This document shows positions 1,373 to 15,404 of a stretch of 18,939 bases of DNA, one piece after another. The stretch spans positions 1-18,939 of the forward strand of contig JBFMCO010000026.1 in the NCBI GenBank assembly GCA_040754495.1. Reading direction: 5' to 3'. A program made the translations under genes and the position numbers. Origin of the DNA: Candidatus Micrarchaeota archaeon. GTDB lineage: Archaea; Micrarchaeota; Micrarchaeia; Anstonellales; Bilamarchaeaceae. The notes beneath the pieces are model-generated. The model was not told where the DNA came from and did no database searches. It saw nothing but the letters and a program-made list of their open reading frames with translations. The stretch's first letter is position 1, and the number at the start of each line of letters is the position of its first letter.

Positions 1373-1549
1373 GCCCTCGTAGTCTAGCCTGGATAGGACG
1401 CAACCCTCCGGCGCGCTTTTTGAAAAAAAGCGCGGCAAAAACTATCTGTTTGCAAACCCTCGCAGGGCTTGCAGACAACCAGTTTTGGGCCGCCTTTTTC
1501 CAAAAGGCGGAGAGAGGTTGATGGGCGGGTTCAAATCCCGTCGAGGGCG
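1373..1549 (+). tRNA. tRNA-Arg(CCG), intron-containing (exons 1373-1411 and 1515-1549; CCA not encoded)
   Basis: Acceptor GCCCTCG/CGAGGGC, discriminator G; D-stem GTCT/GGAC with loop AGCCTGGATA; anticodon stem CAACC/GGTTG; loop CT-CCG-G|A; T-arm GCGGG-TTCAAAT-CCCGT. Spliced length is 74 nt. Confidence 0.95.
1412..1514 (+). other. 103-nt tRNA intron at canonical position 37/38 with a strict bulge-helix-bulge motif
   Basis: Central helix CTCC(1406-1409)/GGAG(1509-1512); 3-nt bulges GG|C (1410-1412) and AG|A (1513-1515); outer helix GC(1413-1414)/GC(1507-1508). Removal restores a 7-nt anticodon loop. Confidence 0.92.
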
Positions 1550-7132: not shown

Positions 7133-9325
7133 ATGGCAAGGAAGGAATTCGTAGTCGAGGAAGCCCAGAAGCTGATGGACAACATAGAGAATGTCAGGAA
7201 TGTCGCAATCATCGCGCACGTCGACCACGGGAAGACGACGCTGACGGACAGCCTCGTGGCGAGGGCCGGCCTAATCAGCAAGGAGCTTGCCGGCCAGCAG
7301 CGCGTCATGGACTTCGACGAGCAGGAAGCCGCCAGGGGAATCACCATCAAGTCGGCCAACATCTCGCTGGGCTTCAGCTATGACGGCAAGGATTATCTCG
7401 TCAACCTCATCGACACGCCGGGCCACGTGGATTTCGGATTCCACGTGGTGCGCGCGATGCGCGCGGTCGACGGCGTGTGCCTGGTCGTGGACGCGGTCGA
7501 GGGCGTGATGCCCCAGACCGAGACCAACCTGAGGCAGGCGCTCAAGGAGAGGGCCCAGCCGGTGCTTTTCATCAACAAGATAGACAGGCTGATAAACGAG
7601 CTGAAGTTCGACGCGGCCCAGATGCAGCAGAGGTTCGTCAAGATAATCACGCAGGTGAACAAGATTATAGACACCAACGCCCCGGAGGACAAGAAGGAGG
7701 CGTGGCTCATCAAGGTGGACCGGGGCAACGTTGCCTTCGGCACGGCGTTCAACAAGTGGGCGGTTTCCTATTCGTCCATGAAGAAGTTCAACATAGGCTT
7801 CAAGGACATCTACGACAAGTGCGCTAACGGCGAGCACGCATGGCTGGTCGAGCGCAGCCCGCTCGACGAGGTGCTCCTGGAGATGATAATCAAGCACCTC
7901 CCCAACCCGAAGACCGCCCAGCCCTACCGCATCCCGGTCCTGTGGAGGAACGGGGACCTGACGACCGAGGCCGGGAAGACGATGCTCGCGTGCGACAACA
8001 AGGCAAAGCCCATAGGGGTCTGCTTCGGCGTCGCTTATGACGAGCACGCAGGAGAGGTCGCGGTCGTGAGGCTGTTCTCCGGCAGCGTCGAGAAGGGGAC
8101 GACGCTGTACGTCCACTCGAAGAAGGATTACGCCAGGGTGCAGCAGGTCGGGATATACATGGGGCCGGACAGGGTGGCGGCTAATCGTGTCATCGCCGGG
8201 AACATCGGCGCTTTCGTCGGGCTCAAGGACGTCTATGTCGGCGAGACCATATGCGGGGAGCCGATAGAGCCTTTCGAGCAGATAAAGCACTATTCCGAGC
8301 CGGTCATCACCAAGTCGCTCGAAGTGAAGGAGCAGAAGGACCTGCCGAAGCTGATTGAAGCGCTGAGGTCCATCTCCAAGGAGGACCCGACCATCAAGAT
8401 TTCCCTCAACCAGGATACGGGCGAGCACCTTGTTAGCGGCAACGGCGAGCTGCACCTGGAAATCATAGAATACAAGATACAGGTCGAGAGGAAGATACCG
8501 ATTATAACGTCCCCGCCGATAGTCGTGTACAGGGAGGCTTTGCTCGGCAGGTCCCCGGTGGTCGAGGGCAAGTCGCCGAACAAGCACAACAGGCTCAAAG
8601 TGACCGTCGAGCCCCTCGAGCCCGAGATAATCAAGGCCATTGATGAGGGGGCGGTCAAGGAGGGGAGACCCAAGGGCAGGGAGGTATGGGAGAAGCTTGT
8701 CGAGCTCGGCATGGACCGGGAGGATGCGAGGAGCATCTACGACATCCACAACTCCAGCGTCTTCATAAACGACACCAAAGGCATCCAGAACCTGAACGAA
8801 TGCGAGGAGCTTCTCGTGCAGGGATTCGAGGAAGCGCTCGACCAGGGCCCTATGGCCAAGGAGAAGATGAGCGGGGTGAAGGTCAGGCTTGTCGATGCCA
8901 CCCTCCACGAGGATAACATACACCGCGGCCCGGCGCAGATGATTCCTGCGATAAAGAGGCCCATATACGCGGCCATGCTGATTGCTGGGGTGACGCTCCT
9001 TGAGCCGAAGCAGAAGGTGCTCATAAACACCCTGCAGGAGTACGCCGGCAACGTCATCACCCTCACGAACGGAAGGAGGGGGACGCTCGTCGGGATGGAG
9101 CAGGAGGGCGAGAACGCCGCAATCACCACGGTGCTCCCGGTGGCTGAGATGTTCGGATTCGCGAACGAGCTGCGCGGGGCCACGCAGGGCAGGGCCATCT
9201 GGTACCAGGAGTATGCCGGCTACAGCAGCATGCCCAAGGAGCTTGTCTCCAAGGTCGTGAAGCAGATACGCGAGCGCAAAGGCGAGAAGCCCGAGCCGCC
9301 CACGCCGGAATTCTTCATGGAATAG
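7133..9325 (+). CDS. fusA: Archaeal translation elongation factor 2 (aEF-2), 730 aa
   Basis: Motifs AHVDHGKTT, RGITIKSA, DTPGHVDF, NKID and GELHLEI; diphthamide loop LHEDNIHRGPAQ (His597, codon 8921-8923); FGFANELRGATQGRA. Confidence 0.98.
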   Translation: MARKEFVVEEAQKLMDNIENVRNVAIIAHVDHGKTTLTDSLVARAGLISKELAGQQRVMDFDEQEAARGITIKSANISLGFSYDGKDYLVNLIDTPGHVDFGFHVVRAMRAVDGVCLVVDAVEGVMPQTETNLRQALKERAQPVLFINKIDRLINELKFDAAQMQQRFVKIITQVNKIIDTNAPEDKKEAWLIKVDRGNVAFGTAFNKWAVSYSSMKKFNIGFKDIYDKCANGEHAWLVERSPLDEVLLEMIIKHLPNPKTAQPYRIPVLWRNGDLTTEAGKTMLACDNKAKPIGVCFGVAYDEHAGEVAVVRLFSGSVEKGTTLYVHSKKDYARVQQVGIYMGPDRVAANRVIAGNIGAFVGLKDVYVGETICGEPIEPFEQIKHYSEPVITKSLEVKEQKDLPKLIEALRSISKEDPTIKISLNQDTGEHLVSGNGELHLEIIEYKIQVERKIPIITSPPIVVYREALLGRSPVVEGKSPNKHNRLKVTVEPLEPEIIKAIDEGAVKEGRPKGREVWEKLVELGMDREDARSIYDIHNSSVFINDTKGIQNLNECEELLVQGFEEALDQGPMAKEKMSGVKVRLVDATLHEDNIHRGPAQMIPAIKRPIYAAMLIAGVTLLEPKQKVLINTLQEYAGNVITLTNGRRGTLVGMEQEGENAAITTVLPVAEMFGFANELRGATQGRAIWYQEYAGYSSMPKELVSKVVKQIRERKGEKPEPPTPEFFME

Positions 9326-9379
9326 TTTTTCTTTTCCATTCTAATCCTTTTTTAAACACTCTTTACCAAAGAATAAACC

Positions 9380-10102
9380 ATGCAGCAGGCTCTCGGCGAG
9401 CGGACGCTACGTTTCAGCAAAAAGCGATTTGGCAGGTTCAGCCCGGAAACCGAGCAGCCGGCGCGGGAGGCGGTATGCGCCCGCTCGGAGGCGGTAAAGG
9501 AGCTTCTTATTTCGTTCAGGAGGCTTGCATCCGGGGCGCAGGGTGCTTGCCATCGTGATTATGAACTTGCCAAGAGGCTTGCGGGCAGGGTGGGATACTC
9601 GAAAGATGATGTGCTGGGGCTTTCCGTGGCGCTTGCCGGCGAGGAGGACAGGCGCGGCTTCATCAGGCTTGCAGGGCTGTTTCTCAGCGCGTGCGTGCAA
9701 ACGGGCCGGGAAAGCGTATACACGATAAACACGCGGGGCTTCAGCCGGCCGCTGGAGGAACTAGGGTTCTGGAACAGGAAGACGATTATTATTGACGGGC
9801 CTTCAGGCGACAGGGCAGGCCGCCTCGCGAGGAAAGGCTCTCTGCTTGTGCTCAGGGAAGGAGCAGGGGATAATATCGGGCAGGACATGACCGGGGGGAC
9901 CATCATCGCAGAGGCCGGAGCCGGGGCGATGATTGGGCACTCGATGAAGAACGGCCTGATAATTGTGAAAGGCAACGCCGGGCGGCTGGCAGGTTTCGAC
10001 ATGCAGGGTGGCGAAATCAGGCTGGAAGGAAGCTGCGGGAGCATCAGCAGCACCGTGCTCAGCGGAAGGATAACGCACCTGGGCGTGCTGCTCGTGGAGT
10101 GA
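9380..10102 (+). CDS. Hypothetical protein with C-terminal GXGXG beta-helix repeats (FwdC / GltB C-terminal-like)
   Basis: 19-aa periodic repeats AGDNIGQDMTGGTIIAEAG / AGAMIGHSMKNGLIIVKGN / AGRLAGFDMQGGEIRLEGS. Helical N-terminus. TTTAAA at 9351-9356, about 26 nt before the ATG. Confidence 0.75.
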   Translation: MQQALGERTLRFSKKRFGRFSPETEQPAREAVCARSEAVKELLISFRRLASGAQGACHRDYELAKRLAGRVGYSKDDVLGLSVALAGEEDRRGFIRLAGLFLSACVQTGRESVYTINTRGFSRPLEELGFWNRKTIIIDGPSGDRAGRLARKGSLLVLREGAGDNIGQDMTGGTIIAEAGAGAMIGHSMKNGLIIVKGNAGRLAGFDMQGGEIRLEGSCGSISSTVLSGRITHLGVLLVE

Positions 10103-10104
10103 CG

Positions 10105-10431
10105 CTACCGCTTCTTCGACAGCTGCATCTCCACCCAGTTCCTCGCCTCGCCTTCGGCGACGGGCTCGACGAGGATGCCGCGCCGGGGCTTGCCCTTCTC
10201 GAAAAACACATAGGTGGGATAGCGCTCGACTCCGTACTTGTCGGCTATGGCCTCGAATTCCTCGGCATCCATCCTGTAGAATCCGGCCTTCCCGCTGAAT
10301 TCCGCCGCGAGCTTCTTCTCGTAGTCTAGGGAGCGCCAGCAGTCTCCGCACCATGAGGCGCAGAAGACTACTACGGCCGCTTCCTCTTTCTTCAGCGACA
10401 CAGCCGGGTCCTGGGTTAGCATCCGTGTCAT
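10105..10431 (-). CDS. Thioredoxin-family protein with a WCGDC active site
   Basis: FCASWCGDC, RMDAEE, YGVERYPTYVFF (cis-Pro motif); 108 aa. Confidence 0.88.
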   Translation of the reverse strand: MTRMLTQDPAVSLKKEEAAVVVFCASWCGDCWRSLDYEKKLAAEFSGKAGFYRMDAEEFEAIADKYGVERYPTYVFFEKGKPRRGILVEPVAEGEARNWVEMQLSKKR

Positions 10432-10483
10432 GCCGAGCCTTGGGTGGGGAAGGTATTTAACGCGTTTCGGCGATGAGGTTGCC

Positions 10484-11701
10484 GTGCTGATGCTTTACGA
10501 CACCCTCAGCCGGAAGAAAAAGCCCTTCCAGCCGGCCGGACGCGGCCCGGTCCGCATCTACACGTGCGGCCCCTCGGTTTACGCCTACTCGCACATAGGC
10601 AATTTCCGCACGTACCTATTCGAGGACGTCCTGGTGCGCTACCTGCGATACAAAGGCTTCGCAGTGAAGCGCGTGATGAACATCACCGACATCGAGGACA
10701 AGGCGATAGACGAGGCGAAGCGGGAGGGGAAGAGCCTGCAGGCGCTCCAGGAGGATAAGATAAAGGCGTTCTTCTCGGATGCCGATGCCCTCGGAATGAT
10801 GAGGCCGGACGTCATCGCGAAGGCGTCCGAGCACGTGCCGCAGATGGCGAATCTCGTTGGCAGGATTTGCTCGAGGGGCTATTGCAGGAGGGAGCGAGAT
10901 GGGATATATTTCGACGTGAGGAAATTCCGCAGGTACGGGGAGCTGAGCCGCCTCCGCAACAAAAAATACCTGGGGCCTGCGCGCAGGGACGACTATGCGC
11001 TGGAGGGCTTGTGGGATTTCAGGCTCTGGAAGTTCTGGACGCGCAGCGACGGCGATGCCAGCTGGGACAGCCCGTTCGGGAGAGGCAGGCCGGGCTGGCA
11101 CATCGAGTGCAGCGCGATGGCTATGCACCACCTCGGCCCCTCGATAGACATTCACTGCGGCGGGACGGACAATATATTCCCGCACCATGAAAACGAAATC
11201 GCCCAGAGCGAGAGCGCGACCAGGAAGACGTTCGCCCGGTTCTGGCTCCACGCGCGGCACCTCACGGTCGGGAAGAAAAAGATGTCGAAGAGGGCAGGGA
11301 ACGTCTTTTATGTAAGGCAGATACTCCGGGAGGGGGTGCATCCGGACTGCCTCAGGTTCTACCTGCTCTCCGAAAGATACCGCAGGCCGCTCGACTTCAC
11401 ATGGAAACGGTTCCAGGCGAAGGTCGCCACATGCGAGCGCACGACAAGGATTATCGAAGGGCTCAGGAAGGTGCGCACCCGGGGCGGCGGGGCGCTTGGA
11501 GCCAGAATCGCTGAAAATCTCCTCGAAGGGTTCGAGAGTGCCATGGACGACGACCTTGACACCCGCCGCGCTTTCAGGGGTATTTTCGCTGCATTCGAGG
11601 AGGCCGGGGATCTCTTAAAAGCCAGACTGCTCAGGAGAGGGGACGCAACGAAAATACTCGCGGCCATGGAGAGGATAAACCGCGTCTTCAATGTTCTCTA
11701 G
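10484..11701 (+). CDS. cysS: Cysteine-tRNA ligase-like protein lacking the C-terminal anticodon-reading subdomain (~405 aa)
   Basis: Motifs YTCGPSVY, HIGN, NITDIEDK, DFRLWK, RPGWHIECSAM, GGTDNIFPHHENE, KMSKRAGN and AMDDDLDT; ends at RVFNVL*. Start is GTG 10484 or ATG 10490 (GAGGT at 10475-10479). The symbol marks homology only; tRNA charging is unproven. Confidence 0.85.
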   Translation: MLMLYDTLSRKKKPFQPAGRGPVRIYTCGPSVYAYSHIGNFRTYLFEDVLVRYLRYKGFAVKRVMNITDIEDKAIDEAKREGKSLQALQEDKIKAFFSDADALGMMRPDVIAKASEHVPQMANLVGRICSRGYCRRERDGIYFDVRKFRRYGELSRLRNKKYLGPARRDDYALEGLWDFRLWKFWTRSDGDASWDSPFGRGRPGWHIECSAMAMHHLGPSIDIHCGGTDNIFPHHENEIAQSESATRKTFARFWLHARHLTVGKKKMSKRAGNVFYVRQILREGVHPDCLRFYLLSERYRRPLDFTWKRFQAKVATCERTTRIIEGLRKVRTRGGGALGARIAENLLEGFESAMDDDLDTRRAFRGIFAAFEEAGDLLKARLLRRGDATKILAAMERINRVFNVL

Positions 11702-12480
11702 CCTAATCTGGCAAGCTTGCCCGCCTTCCGCGCGCTCTCGTACATGTAGCCGTTGAAGAGGTACGCCGCCACGACCCAGAGGATGCTTGTCCCTGCGAGG
11801 ATGGCGATATCCGGGCTCCCGAGGCCCACGCTCGATTTCAGGAGCTCGAATGCCTGCGTGCTGGGAAGGAGCCGTATCAGCGGGACGAGCCAGGCCGGAT
11901 AGACGGCCTCTATCGAGAAATAGACGCCCGAGAGCAGCACGATGACGTCCGGCCAGATGAACGCGATGTTGAATGCCTCCTCCTTCATGTAATAGCCGAG
12001 GCCGAGAGTTACCAGCCCCATGGCGAACCCTATCATGGCGAAGAAGAACAATGCCGCAAGGAATATGCCCCAGTCAGGGACGACGAAGCCGTAGAGGGCG
12101 TAAGTCGCGACAAGGTATGTGATTATCACGAAAGCGGCCTTCCAGACGCCGCTCGCAGCCGTCCCGAGCGCGAACTCCAGCCTGCTTATGGGGGACATCA
12201 GCAGGTGGGGAAGGGATTTCGACCAGTATTCGTCCACGAACGAGCTGACCATCTCGAGGTTGAGGAAGTAAATCATCCTCCAGCCCATCATGCCGAGGAT
12301 TATCATGTTTATGTAGACGCGGTCCGAGCCGAGGTATGTCGCGAAGAAGGTCAGAGTGAACAGGAATATCATCGGCCATATCACGACGTCGGCGAGCCTG
12401 AACGTGTTGCGGCGCAGCATATGCACGCTCTTGTAGAGCATCGCGTATATCCGGCTCAGGCTCTCAAGCACCGGTCTCAC
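11698..12480 (-). CDS. ABC-2 type exporter permease
   Basis: About six hydrophobic segments, ABC-2 loop PHLLMSPISRLEFALG and LLPSTQAFE. GTG start overlaps the ATPase stop. Confidence 0.88.
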   Translation of the reverse strand: MRPVLESLSRIYAMLYKSVHMLRRNTFRLADVVIWPMIFLFTLTFFATYLGSDRVYINMIILGMMGWRMIYFLNLEMVSSFVDEYWSKSLPHLLMSPISRLEFALGTAASGVWKAAFVIITYLVATYALYGFVVPDWGIFLAALFFFAMIGFAMGLVTLGLGYYMKEEAFNIAFIWPDVIVLLSGVYFSIEAVYPAWLVPLIRLLPSTQAFELLKSSVGLGSPDIAILAGTSILWVVAAYLFNGYMYESARKAGKLARLG

Positions 12481-13447
12481 CCTCTTCGGCCATTTCCTTC
12501 CTTCTTCCCCTGGCCGATGGCTTCTTGTTTATCAGCTTCAGGTACGTCTCCTCTAGCGTGGGCTCCAGCGCGCTCACGTTGTATATCTCGGCTCCGGAAC
12601 CCGAAAGCGCCCGCATTATGTCCTTCATCCTGCGGTAGCTGTCCACGGAAACGTGCACGAGGCGGGGGGAATGCAGGGACGCCTTCACGCCGCCTATTCT
12701 CCCGAGGGCTTTCAGGACCGCATCCGAATCCGAGCAGTTGACTTCTATCACCCGCTCGCCGATTATCTTCTCCTTCAGCTCCGGCACGGTGCCGACATCC
12801 AGCACCTTTCCGTGGTTGATGAACGCGATGCGGTCGCAGAGCTCCTCGGCCTCGAACATGTTGTGCGTGGTCAGGAGGATGGTGCGGCCCTCCTTCCGCA
12901 GCCTCTTTATCATTTCCCGGATGCTTATCGCGGACTCGACGTCCAGCCCCACTGTCGGCTCGTCCATTATGAGGACCTTCGGCTCGCTGAGCAGGGCCTT
13001 TCCTATCTGGAATTTCTGCTTCATCCCGGCCGAGAAGTCCTCGACCTCGAGCTTCCGGGCGCCTTCCAGGCCGACGATGCGGAGCACCTCGTCTATTTTC
13101 GCCTTCGAGTCAGGAACGTTGTAAAGCAGGCAGTAGTAGGTGAGGGCTTCTTCGCAGGAGAGCGAGAACGGCACCCCGGTGAAGCCGGACATGACATTGA
13201 GGTTCTTCTGGACCTCCTTGGAGCGCTTAATGCAGTCCACGCCGCAGACGGACGCCTCGCCCGAGTCTGGCGAGAGGATGCCGGCGAGGATGCTGATGAG
13301 GGTTGTCTTGCCCGCGCCGTTCGGGCCGAGGAGGCCGAATATCTCGCCTTCCCGGATATCCAGCGCTGCCCCTTCCAGCGCCTTGATGGTTTGGCCTCCG
13401 CTGCGGTAGGTCTTGGAGACGCCCTTCACGGAGATGACGCATCGCAT
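12464..13447 (-). CDS. ABC transporter ATP-binding subunit (DrrA/CcmA-like export type)
   Basis: Walker A GPNGAGKT, signature FSAGMKQK, Walker B LIMDEPT, H-loop TTHN. Start moved to ATG 13447 (MRCVISV...), with TAATAAAT about 25 nt upstream. Confidence 0.93.
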   Translation of the reverse strand: MRCVISVKGVSKTYRSGGQTIKALEGAALDIREGEIFGLLGPNGAGKTTLISILAGILSPDSGEASVCGVDCIKRSKEVQKNLNVMSGFTGVPFSLSCEEALTYYCLLYNVPDSKAKIDEVLRIVGLEGARKLEVEDFSAGMKQKFQIGKALLSEPKVLIMDEPTVGLDVESAISIREMIKRLRKEGRTILLTTHNMFEAEELCDRIAFINHGKVLDVGTVPELKEKIIGERVIEVNCSDSDAVLKALGRIGGVKASLHSPRLVHVSVDSYRRMKDIMRALSGSGAEIYNVSALEPTLEETYLKLINKKPSARGRRKEMAEEGETGA

Positions 13448-13482
13448 GCAAGTGAGATTGGCGGCAGGATTTATTAGGCTGA

Positions 13483-13890
13483 CTAGTTCGCGAGCGCCGT
13501 CTCCTCGCGGAGTTCCCGGACAAGGCTGTCGCGGTGGATTTGCGTCGGCAGGCAGCCGGTCTCGAACACCAGCGACTGGAGCCGGGACAGCTGCCTTGCC
13601 AGGTAAAGGTTGTCCAGGCATGCAAGGCGCACGTCCTCGAAATCAGAAAACTGGGCGTAATGCTCGAAAAGACGCAGTATGCGCGGTGCTGCCTCGGCGT
13701 CGCTGTGGAGGAGGCAGAACGCCCCGAGCGTCCTCACCGCAGCGAGCCTCTCCCTGCTGCTCGGGCTGTCCAGGTCGTCGAACTTCTCCATGCAGCGTTC
13801 CCTGAGGCGCTCAGGCTCGGCGAGGCTGCCGCTCAGCCTCAGGAAAGCGTGGTGGAAAAAAGTCAGCCTGGAGCGCTGGATTATCATCAT
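13483..13890 (-). CDS. Small hypothetical protein with HEAT/ARM-like helical repeats
   Basis: Segments SPSSRERLAAVRTLG and FEDVRLACLDNL. Start ATG 13890 chosen because a TATA-like AT box (13913-13920) lies about 26 nt upstream. Confidence 0.55.
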   Translation of the reverse strand: MMIIQRSRLTFFHHAFLRLSGSLAEPERLRERCMEKFDDLDSPSSRERLAAVRTLGAFCLLHSDAEAAPRILRLFEHYAQFSDFEDVRLACLDNLYLARQLSRLQSLVFETGCLPTQIHRDSLVRELREETALAN

Positions 13891-14663: not shown

Positions 14664-15404
14664 TCATTTCGAGAAGAACATGCCCTGGAGGCGCGCCGAG
14701 TGCCTGATTCCCCGGAATCCCGCTTCCTTCAGCCTCTTCTCGACCTCCCTGTCGATGCGCCTGCCGCGCCCCTTCCCGACCGAGCCCACATAATGGAAGA
14801 GCCTGGCGCCCTTCTTGCATACGCGGTGCAGGGCGGCGTAGAATGCGGACGAGTAGAGCTCGGGCGCGTGCGAGAAGCGCGGGGGGTCGTGGATGACGAA
14901 ATCGAACATGCAGTCATCGAAGCCCTCCACCAGCTCCGCCGCGCTGCCCTTCATGAGCACCATCTTGCCGTCCTTCTCGAAAAGCGGCACGCTGAAGGGG
15001 TTCCACTGCGCCAGCGTGACGACGGCATCCGAGACCTCGCATGTGACGACGAGCTTCACGCCCGGTTCCCTCGCCGCCGCGATGGCAGTGTAGCCGAGGC
15101 CCATGCACGTGTCGAGAACCACTGCGGCGCCCCGGCGGGGGATGCCGAGCCCGCGCACGACCTCTGCCGAGTAGTCCAGCGGCGTCCTGAAGTCCCGCGT
15201 AAGCTGCATCCGCAGGCCGTCTATCTCCAGCACCGGGACGCCGTTTTGGGGCCGGAGCTTGTAGTAATGCCCTGCGAACATGTCGAGCCTTACCTCGCCC
15301 CCCTCGGTCTGGGCGTACAGGAAATCGCCGTCGGTGGTGTAGGCCACCTTGCCATCGCGCAGGAAAAGTTCCCGCTTCGCTCCCTTCTTCATCCGGGCGG
15401 TCAT
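14664..15404 (-). CDS. SAM-dependent methyltransferase, predicted archaeal type (COG2521-like)
   Basis: Motif I LDTCMGLGYTAI, TCE (motif II), HDPPRFS, ELYSSAFY and LFHYVG. Confidence 0.85.
   Translation of the reverse strand: MTARMKKGAKRELFLRDGKVAYTTDGDFLYAQTEGGEVRLDMFAGHYYKLRPQNGVPVLEIDGLRMQLTRDFRTPLDYSAEVVRGLGIPRRGAAVVLDTCMGLGYTAIAAAREPGVKLVVTCEVSDAVVTLAQWNPFSVPLFEKDGKMVLMKGSAAELVEGFDDCMFDFVIHDPPRFSHAPELYSSAFYAALHRVCKKGARLFHYVGSVGKGRGRRIDREVEKRLKEAGFRGIRHSARLQGMFFSK

Follow-up and report, generated by a model that had tools for sequence, protein, structure and literature searches.

We report a short paralogue of cysteinyl-tRNA synthetase (CysRS), hereafter sCysRS, encoded on an 18,939-nucleotide stretch of the genome of Candidatus Micrarchaeota archaeon, a very small symbiont (contig JBFMCO010000026.1, assembly GCA_040754495.1; the whole stretch is called the window). 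The protein retains the catalytic core of CysRS, and the evidence firmly supports that it is unable to read the anticodon, that it is an accessory paralogue and a conserved family under purifying selection, and that a thiol oxidoreductase and a drug-type exporter are inherited along with it. Its function probably lies outside ordinary translation. Tentatively, and with less than even confidence, we read sCysRS as a cysteine ligase that works outside translation, as part of a cassette for thiol/redox export. The assembly holding the gene (1.63 Mb, 72 contigs) is 80% complete. Comparisons drew on 151 Micrarchaeota genomes (the phylum sample) and on 28 other genomes of the window's genus (the genus sample); family and genus codes begin with f and g, f1 and g1 being the window's own, and one unpublished genome (G029) was counted only in tallies across the phylum, and none of the conclusions depends on it.

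Architecture, distribution and charge of sCysRS

The gene and the region upstream of it are as follows.
10484..11701, plus strand: sCysRS, 405 amino acids (aa) from GTG 10484 or 403 aa from ATG 10490, comprising a Rossmann core, CP domain, SC fold and helical bundle.
10432..10483, no strand assigned: divergent intergenic region between a thioredoxin gene and sCysRS, with TATTTAA at 10454-10460, approximately 27 nucleotides (nt) 5' of GTG 10484.

The sCysRS product is matched by Pfam tRNA-synt_1e at 5.7e-95 and by the cysS model TIGR00435 at 365.3 bits, above the cut-off of 340, but coverage extends only over model positions 1-372 of 466 (with the match ending at 372-375). Residues are numbered here as in Escherichia coli CysRS (checked against 1LI5), a numbering that coincides with that of the window protein to approximately residue 310, and conservation figures compare 74 members of its clade, at just 50-67% identity, with 186 full-length relatives. 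Among the 74, the zinc/cysteine-site residues C28, T68, W205, C209, H234 and E238 never vary, and the motifs H37-I-G-N40 (H37/G39/N40) and K266-M-S-K269 are equally unvarying. An AlphaFold2 model based on the 74-member alignment (predicted local distance difference test score, 92.9) ends in a four-helix bundle, and in Foldseek searches it fits CysRS structures best (template-modelling (TM) score of 0.91 to 8QHP and 0.86 to 1U0B), with the mycothiol-pathway ligase MshC lower (TM 0.80-0.82; seventh or eighth among the PDB matches). The protein ends approximately 60-80 residues before full-length CysRS, which has a median of approximately 62 further residues; the full-length copy resident in the same genome has 79 more, including an ...AR..K.Y..SD.IR..L...GI.LED tail. 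In E. coli CysRS, the residues that contact the anticodon (R427, W432, D436 and R439) lie in this C-terminal domain (PMC13449415). The sCysRS stop codon (11699-11701) overlaps the convergent gene for an ABC-2 permease (11698-12480, minus strand) by 4 nt.

These results bear out the central observation of the first-pass annotation, a model's reading of the letters of the window, which had described an intact zinc/adenylation core without the anticodon-reading C terminus: profile coverage, invariant residues and the end of the model at the helical bundle all agree, the tail it had reported missing (R..AR..K.F..AD.IR..L...G..LED) is absent from sCysRS but has its counterpart in the resident full-length enzyme, and the overlap with the permease stop at 11698-11701 is as described. 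The start it gave, 10484, is also sound, since relatives start at positions that align with GTG 10484 or ATG 10490 (the frame itself, 10430..11701 on the plus strand, is open over 423 codons); the TATTTAA at 10454-10460 might conceivably be an archaeal TATA box, that is, the promoter for a leaderless mRNA. Two changes that had been offered as functional clues, KIIK to KAID and KMSKS to KMSKR, proved to be ordinary variation (R270 occurs in 18% of the 186 full-length relatives and position 76 is variable), and so did HIGN, N40 being found in 69% of those relatives.

A second, full-length cysS, which had been proposed as a check, is present in the same genome on another contig (G000:C22:47444-48892; 484 bits over model positions 1-465). 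Its origin as a contaminant was ruled out, because that contig fits the genome in GC content (0.607, versus 0.604 for the window contig) and in tetranucleotide use (both contigs lie at or above the genome's median tetranucleotide correlation). The anticodon-binding CysS_C domain occurs in this genome only in the full-length gene, and likewise in five well-assembled relatives that bear sCysRS; with no free copy of the domain in any of the six, the earlier suggestion of a split CysRS falls away. A search of the genome for SepRS returned none, only a weak PheRS-like match. Across the phylum sample, a cysS match was found in 149 of the 151 genomes, nearly all of them full-length, with approximately 20 genomes having an additional short copy; only in G150 and G369, both of them fragmented or incomplete assemblies, was the short form the sole cysS match. 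sCysRS is therefore not the only CysRS of the organism, since a full-length gene coexists with it and the short form is accessory across the phylum. Nor is it a recent strain-specific truncation: database searches recovered approximately 85 clusters of the short form with the same length and end (399-424 aa, 50-67% identity, named Micrarchaeota, Bilamarchaeum or 'ainarchaeum'), below which scores fall sharply to 467-aa full-length enzymes that are 46% identical, and sCysRS is present in 13 of the 28 other genomes of the genus and in about one in ten of the phylum sample. In one genome of the genus (G144), only the last approximately 86 codons are left, between the permease and thioredoxin genes (L066:7120-7374), a recent deletion in an otherwise intact cassette. 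Databases call these proteins 'cysteine--tRNA ligase', a name that probably overstates their function and could mislead metabolic reconstructions of DPANN archaea.

The window protein is only 36% identical to the full-length CysRS of its own genome, and 42-46% identical to the 'group 1' full-length enzymes found in certain other families of Micrarchaeota. In a maximum-likelihood tree, the short forms of families f1, f2, f7, f9, f11 and f15 make up one group, here clade A (Shimodaira-Hasegawa-like approximate likelihood-ratio support, 88), apart from both groups of full-length CysRS; a FastTree analysis of 229 sequences recovered 28 of the 31 clade-A rows at a support of 97 and 30 of the 31 at 77, and placed the base of clade A nearest the 'group 1' full-length enzymes. 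The full-length CysRS of Micrarchaeota themselves form two divergent groups (G000:C22:47444-48892; loci L025-L031 and L048-L065), and an original CysRS that was later displaced may be the ancestor of the short form. Further short forms (384-388 aa, family f10) make up clade B, which branches apart from clade A. Constraining all short forms together cost 42 log-likelihood units (approximately unbiased (AU) test, p = 0.011, for groups that were named after the tree had been seen), and the anticodon domain was therefore lost at least twice in the phylum. At three of its four loci, clade B follows a PIG-L deacetylase gene by 4 nt, and it reaches 382 bits on the MshC model TIGR03447 (cut-off 485), almost equal to its cysS score. 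It carries the substitutions R42F, K73D and K183Q with only a mild shift in charge, and together with PIG-L it resembles an MshB/MshC pair, in an archaeon. The clade-B proteins at L032:3304-5152, L034:3292-5158 and L035:3953-5793 (f10 genomes G135, G097 and G099, respectively) are not strongly basic.

Clade A, by comparison, is marked by its charge. Its members have isoelectric points (pI) of 9.5-10.6 and net charges of +20 to +40 (pI 9.89 and +25 for the window protein, which ranks approximately 33rd by net charge among approximately 1,000 crude open reading frames of its genome), whereas the full-length CysRS of the same genomes have pI 5.4-8.8 and net charges of -14 to +4. No single region accounts for the gain in positive charge, to which the first Rossmann half, CP domain, SC fold and helical bundle all contribute. 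sCysRS retains 93-94% of the residues that are conserved at at least 90-95% in full-length CysRS. Among the differences, the CP1 loop (residues ~162-171) has a one-residue insert and conservation of R167 drops from 94% to 49%; Y135 and H298 are lost in clade A; and the window's subclade carries five to six additional cysteines that are almost invariant (at 129, 134, 225, 289 and 315/317), of which C129, C134, C289 and C317 occur in none of the 186 full-length CysRS compared. These cysteines could form a second metal site or a disulfide site, or be targets of the thioredoxin. The cysteine pocket is remodelled in two other subclades, by E238T, H224A, H206N, E208H/Q and K73S/T in f2-g16 and by W205T and E208Y in f7; the f2-g16 substrate may differ. 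Members of f2-g16 (L044:3980-5221, L045, L046 and L047) keep HIGN, KMSK and the basic charge, and an M24 peptidase gene comes next in their operon.

The sCysRS cassette and its neighbourhood

In the window, three other genes make up the cassette, and the flanking genes lie outside it.
10105..10431, minus strand: thioredoxin-like protein, 108 aa, with a WCGDC active site and without signal peptide or membrane segment; divergent from sCysRS.
11698..12480, minus strand: ABC-2 type permease, 260 aa (Pfam ABC2_membrane), convergent with sCysRS.
12464..13621, minus strand: DrrA-type ABC ATPase, 385 aa (Pfam ABC_tran and DrrA1-3_C), the partner of the permease.
7133..10102, plus strand: left flank, outside the cassette, with aEF-2 (7133-9325) and a GXGXG/FwdC-like protein (9380-10102).
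14664..15404, minus strand: right flank, outside the cassette, a methyltransferase-fold gene.

The thioredoxin-like product matches Pfam Thioredoxin at 7.5e-14 and TIGR01068 at 45 bits, below cut-off; thioredoxin adjoins sCysRS at 10 of the 17 f1-family loci, and the cassette thioredoxins are cytoplasmic, with a C-(G/P/V/A)-D-C motif (CPSC in G103; the second cysteine is lost in G147). The best family for the window ATPase is TIGR01188 drrA (246 bits, below the cut-off of 312), and at L039 the ATPase is DrrA (348 bits, above cut-off) and the permease DrrB (213 bits, just under cut-off). Orthologues of the window permease at 55% identity or more were found, within the phylum sample, in only three other genus-g1 genomes, all with sCysRS or its remnant. 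Within genus g1, the four genes come and go as one block, with EF-2/GXGXG on one side and the methyltransferase gene on the other; where the cassette is missing, the left flank is kept and the methyltransferase gene adjoins EF-2/GXGXG. The product of 9380-10102 (240 aa) has only weak GXGXG/FwdC-like similarity and is approximately 490-506 aa long in the congeners L017 and L086, a similarity found in an organism not expected to use formylmethanofuran.

Beyond the genus, the same genes recur near sCysRS in shuffled orders, at least five in all.
Genus g1 (window): thioredoxin leftward, sCysRS rightward, then permease and ATPase leftward.
G103 (f11): ATPase, permease, sCysRS and thioredoxin, all rightward.
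G082 (f1, g3) and G039 (f15): ATPase, permease and sCysRS, all rightward.
Family f2-g16: divergent thioredoxin, then ATPase, permease, sCysRS and M24 peptidase rightward.
G369: sCysRS facing thioredoxin and ATPase.
Two metagenome contigs: ArsR/Phr-type regulator leftward, then sCysRS, ATPase, permease, an open reading frame and glutaredoxin rightward.
A named Micrarchaeia metagenome-assembled genome: ATPase, permease and sCysRS rightward, then a GNAT acetyltransferase gene and thioredoxin.

By our count, the ABC pair lies no more than two genes from sCysRS at approximately 26 of 31 distinct loci, and a thioredoxin or glutaredoxin gene is found at approximately 17 of the 31. Strict co-occurrence of the pump with sCysRS was considered and rejected: a c9-type DrrAB operon is present in 108 of the 151 genomes, mostly without sCysRS. 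In the seven genomes without sCysRS that were checked, the DrrAB operon stands alone, with the adjacent thioredoxin absent too. An ArsR/Phr-type regulator, a Zip transporter or a gamma-carbonic-anhydrase-like gene occurs at some sCysRS loci. Two loci (L036:3527-3997 and L037:5266-5721, in G147 and G121, respectively) have no adjacent pump; there, a radical SAM gene precedes sCysRS and a gamma-carbonic-anhydrase-like hexapeptide gene follows it after 16 nt (L036) or 45 nt (L037). Proteobacterial Zur regulons likewise bring together gamma-carbonic anhydrases and CysRS paralogues. The cassette was also considered as an anti-phage defence system, for which PADLOC returned no match beyond generic ATPase ones.

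Candidate functions of sCysRS

On our favoured reading, sCysRS would bind zinc, cysteine and ATP and form cysteinyl-adenylate, a reaction that it is predicted, almost certainly, to have kept. With the domain that reads the GCA anticodon lost, the cysteine would pass to an acceptor other than anticodon-selected tRNA-Cys, and probably to an anionic one, because sCysRS is strongly positive. The enzyme would act within the four-gene accessory cassette, with the CxxC thioredoxin-like protein handling the thiol/disulfide state and the DrrAB-type ABC-2 exporter removing the product or its conjugates. We favour a non-translational role because sCysRS is redundant for translation in a genome with a full-length cysS, and because such a role explains the loss of the domain, the shuffled yet conserved neighbours, the block-wise presence and absence of the cassette and the drift of the cysteine pocket in some subclades, where changes such as E238T, H224A and W205T would be unfit for a translational enzyme, which should not tolerate them. 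It would also avoid the risk of mischarging tRNA-Thr: U73 alone would not separate tRNA-Cys from tRNA-Thr without anticodon reading, because the Thr-anticodon tRNA candidates of the genome bear the discriminator U73 as well (from our own rough scan). Precedents (MshC, and clade B behind PIG-L) lend further support. The non-translational cysteine ligase proposed in the first-pass annotation, acting on a small molecule or another non-tRNA acceptor, thus stands as the preferred interpretation, only narrowly ahead of a tRNA acceptor.

Several observations pull the other way. A net charge of +20 to +40 would be expected of a nucleic-acid binder and fits a non-translational ligase only if the acceptor is assumed to be anionic, or if the enzyme is assumed to work at a membrane surface or with a partner protein. 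The cassette holds no acceptor-building enzyme (glycosyltransferase or deacetylase), and no PIG-L gene was found in the 80%-complete genome. Among the near-universal CysRS residues that the core keeps are R42, K73 and K183, which are replaced in clade B; MshC, too, may have replaced R42 and K73. The coupling of sCysRS to its cassette is not obligatory, because G144 keeps the thioredoxin and the pump after losing most of sCysRS. Lastly, a thioredoxin gene lies approximately 2 kb from full-length cysS in at least nine f9 genomes (for example, G034:C30:4095-7652, G026:C16:5772-9341 and G098:C32:817-4437); a thioredoxin-CysRS link may therefore be general in the phylum, and it need not mean a non-translational role.

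A close rival, only slightly less likely, sees sCysRS as an RNA-directed enzyme that works independently of the anticodon, attaching cysteine to the 3' end of tRNA-Cys, or of some other RNA, by way of the acceptor stem, U73 and non-specific electrostatics. It would serve either as a backup or resistant CysRS at times of stress, under shared regulation with the efflux pump and thioredoxin, or to charge a special tRNA, as does CysRS*, the second CysRS of Desulfobacterales. Set against the full-length CysRS of its genome, the short form has gained approximately +30 to +45 in charge across the Rossmann, CP, SC-fold and helical-bundle domains, as would be expected of an RNA binder deprived of its specific RNA-binding domain, and the residues retained include Y299/R300, near the acceptor stem (PMC13449415). 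The score above the cysS cut-off and a fold closest to CysRS point the same way. According to the identity rules of tRNA-Cys, U73 alone suffices for minihelix charging (PMC9976931), and CysRS* is a functional CysRS without an anticodon-binding domain (ABD) whose CP1 loop is altered (PMC5389517); in the sCysRS clade, R167 of that loop is only 49% conserved, and one residue is inserted. Stress copies of CysRS under Zur control are known (PMC2770081), the regulator, Zip transporter and gamma-carbonic-anhydrase-like genes at some sCysRS loci hint at stress or metal control, and the f9 thioredoxins fit a translational context too. However, neither a tRNA gene nor a SelB-like factor accompanies sCysRS: Rfam and ARAGORN found no tRNA beside it in the window or at the 20 related loci (one tRNA-Asp, 3 kb off at one locus, is unrelated), and aEF-2 and aIF2-gamma, the translational GTPases encoded nearby, are housekeeping factors. 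Anticodon blindness would risk charging the U73-bearing tRNA-Thr, the remodelled f2 and f7 pockets misfit a translational role, a role in translation offers no obvious reason for the conserved link to a DrrAB exporter, and frequent loss (with only 13 of the 28 genus genomes having sCysRS, and a remnant in G144) also argues against this alternative.

No clear tRNA-Cys was found in the genome by ARAGORN (with or without introns), Rfam RF00005 or two scanners of our own, which together yielded only a partial tRNA set from an intron-rich, 80%-complete assembly. The genes are heavily interrupted: across 1.63 Mb, ARAGORN reports 7 (17 with introns) and Rfam 15, and a tRNA-Arg(CCG) candidate at window positions 1373-1549, with a 103-nt intron, was missed by both programs when run on the window. 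A hairpin with a UCA anticodon on contig C31 was rejected as part of an intron-containing tRNA-Leu(CAA), and an ARAGORN 'tRNA-SeC' call with a 658-nt intron is a candidate only.

We give only a slim chance to sCysRS being what is left of a displaced CysRS, decaying or no longer catalytic and retained only as a binding or regulatory protein. Its patchy distribution and frequent loss, the pocket residues lost in some subclades and the fact that 'group 1' full-length enzymes from other Micrarchaeota are closer to it than the resident copy is are in keeping with such an origin, but every catalytic residue is invariant across the 74 window-clade sequences, divergent as these are, length and stop position are conserved, and the structural model is confident throughout. 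Slimmer still is the chance that sCysRS is a cysteine persulfide synthase, making cysteine hydropersulfide from cysteine without tRNA while the thioredoxin reduces or relays the persulfide. Persulfide synthesis is a second activity reported for bacterial and mitochondrial CysRS, carried by the KIIK and KMSKS lysines; to our knowledge, it has been shown for no archaeal CysRS. Such chemistry would have no use for the anticodon domain, the lysines K73, K266 and K269 never vary and thioredoxin is the commonest neighbour, but the fourth KIIK position (76) is unconserved in the clade and in full-length relatives, and neither the positive charge nor the exporter would be explained. Least credible of all is that sCysRS is an orthologue of MshC, the enzyme to which its architecture was likened at first pass, and joins cysteine to glucosaminyl-inositol, or to an amino sugar like it, to give a thiol resembling mycothiol: the domain architecture is the same and an acetyltransferase lies nearby at one locus, but sCysRS scores 223.2 bits on TIGR03447 against a cut-off of 485.1 (compared with 382 bits for clade B), no PIG-L gene such as that beside clade B was found in its 80%-complete genome, the tree sets it apart from MshC-like clade B, with the AU test rejecting the union of the two short clades, and the protein is strongly basic.

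Returning to the non-translational ligase, a more specific proposal, which we consider unlikely, is a tRNA-independent cysteinylation and export pathway in DPANN archaea, in which cysteine would be placed onto an anionic lipid, envelope polymer or metabolite, the pump would export the product and the thioredoxin would set its thiol state. If true, a synthetase would here have given rise to an MprF/Dlt-like system or to a new one for low-molecular-weight thiols. How these organisms handle thiols and depend on their hosts is poorly understood.

Comparison with known systems

Canonical CysRS (TIGR00435, 1LI5/1U0B) is the closest match to sCysRS, sharing the Rossmann, CP, SC-fold and helical-bundle core (TM 0.86-0.91; profile score above cut-off) and, residue for residue, the zinc ligands C28, C209, H234 and E238 together with W205, HIGN and KMSK. 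Unlike the canonical enzyme, sCysRS is an accessory second copy without the C-terminal alpha/beta domain (Pfam CysS_C), and its clade differs in net charge (approximately +30 versus -5), in the unconserved R167 and in the clade cysteines C129, C134, C225, C289 and C317. MshC (TIGR03447; 3C8Z) is likewise a CysRS-derived, ABD-less cysteine ligase of approximately 410 residues that stands beside a true CysRS, an architecture shared by sCysRS, which, in contrast, is archaeal and strongly basic, falls below the TIGR03447 cut-off and matches the MshC fold less well than that of CysRS. As to the partners of MshC, no PIG-L gene is present in the cassettes; MshA and MshD were not searched for genome-wide. 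Archaea have been reported to lack mycothiol genes (PMC7278568), a view on which the MshC-like gene beside PIG-L in family f10 bears.

In the CysRS* system of Desulfobacterales (Mukai et al. 2017), a second, ABD-less cysS is coupled to a selC* tRNA-Cys(UCA) and to selB* (PMC5389517). sCysRS resembles it in being an ABD-less copy beside a normal one, and may do so in the CP1 loop, which contacts the first acceptor base pair and has changes in each; it differs in being archaeal, in having no linked tRNA or SelB-like gene and in having an ABC-2 exporter and thioredoxin as neighbours. The Zur-regulated CysRS paralogues of proteobacteria (Haas et al. 2009) are extra copies in zinc-uptake regulons with COG0523 and ZnuABC (PMC2770081); they, too, keep the zinc ligands and cluster with transporters and stress-regulon genes, but loss of the anticodon domain is not reported there, and the transporter of sCysRS is a DrrAB-type exporter. 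In other synthetase families, acting on other amino acids, the truncated paralogues GluQRS/YadB, amino acid:carrier-protein ligases and PoxA/EpmA have kept the adenylate-forming core, dropped the anticodon- or tRNA-binding domain and gained new acceptors (a modified tRNA base, an acidic carrier protein and EF-P, respectively; PMC9437257).

Synthetase paralogues without an ABD have thus repeatedly proved to perform new chemistry, as with MshC, GluQRS, the carrier-protein ligases and CysRS*. Among papers pairing Micrarchaeota or DPANN with CysRS, we found no published description of this clade, and clade A is apparently a further, undescribed case of such a paralogue, distinct from MshC and probably also from CysRS*.

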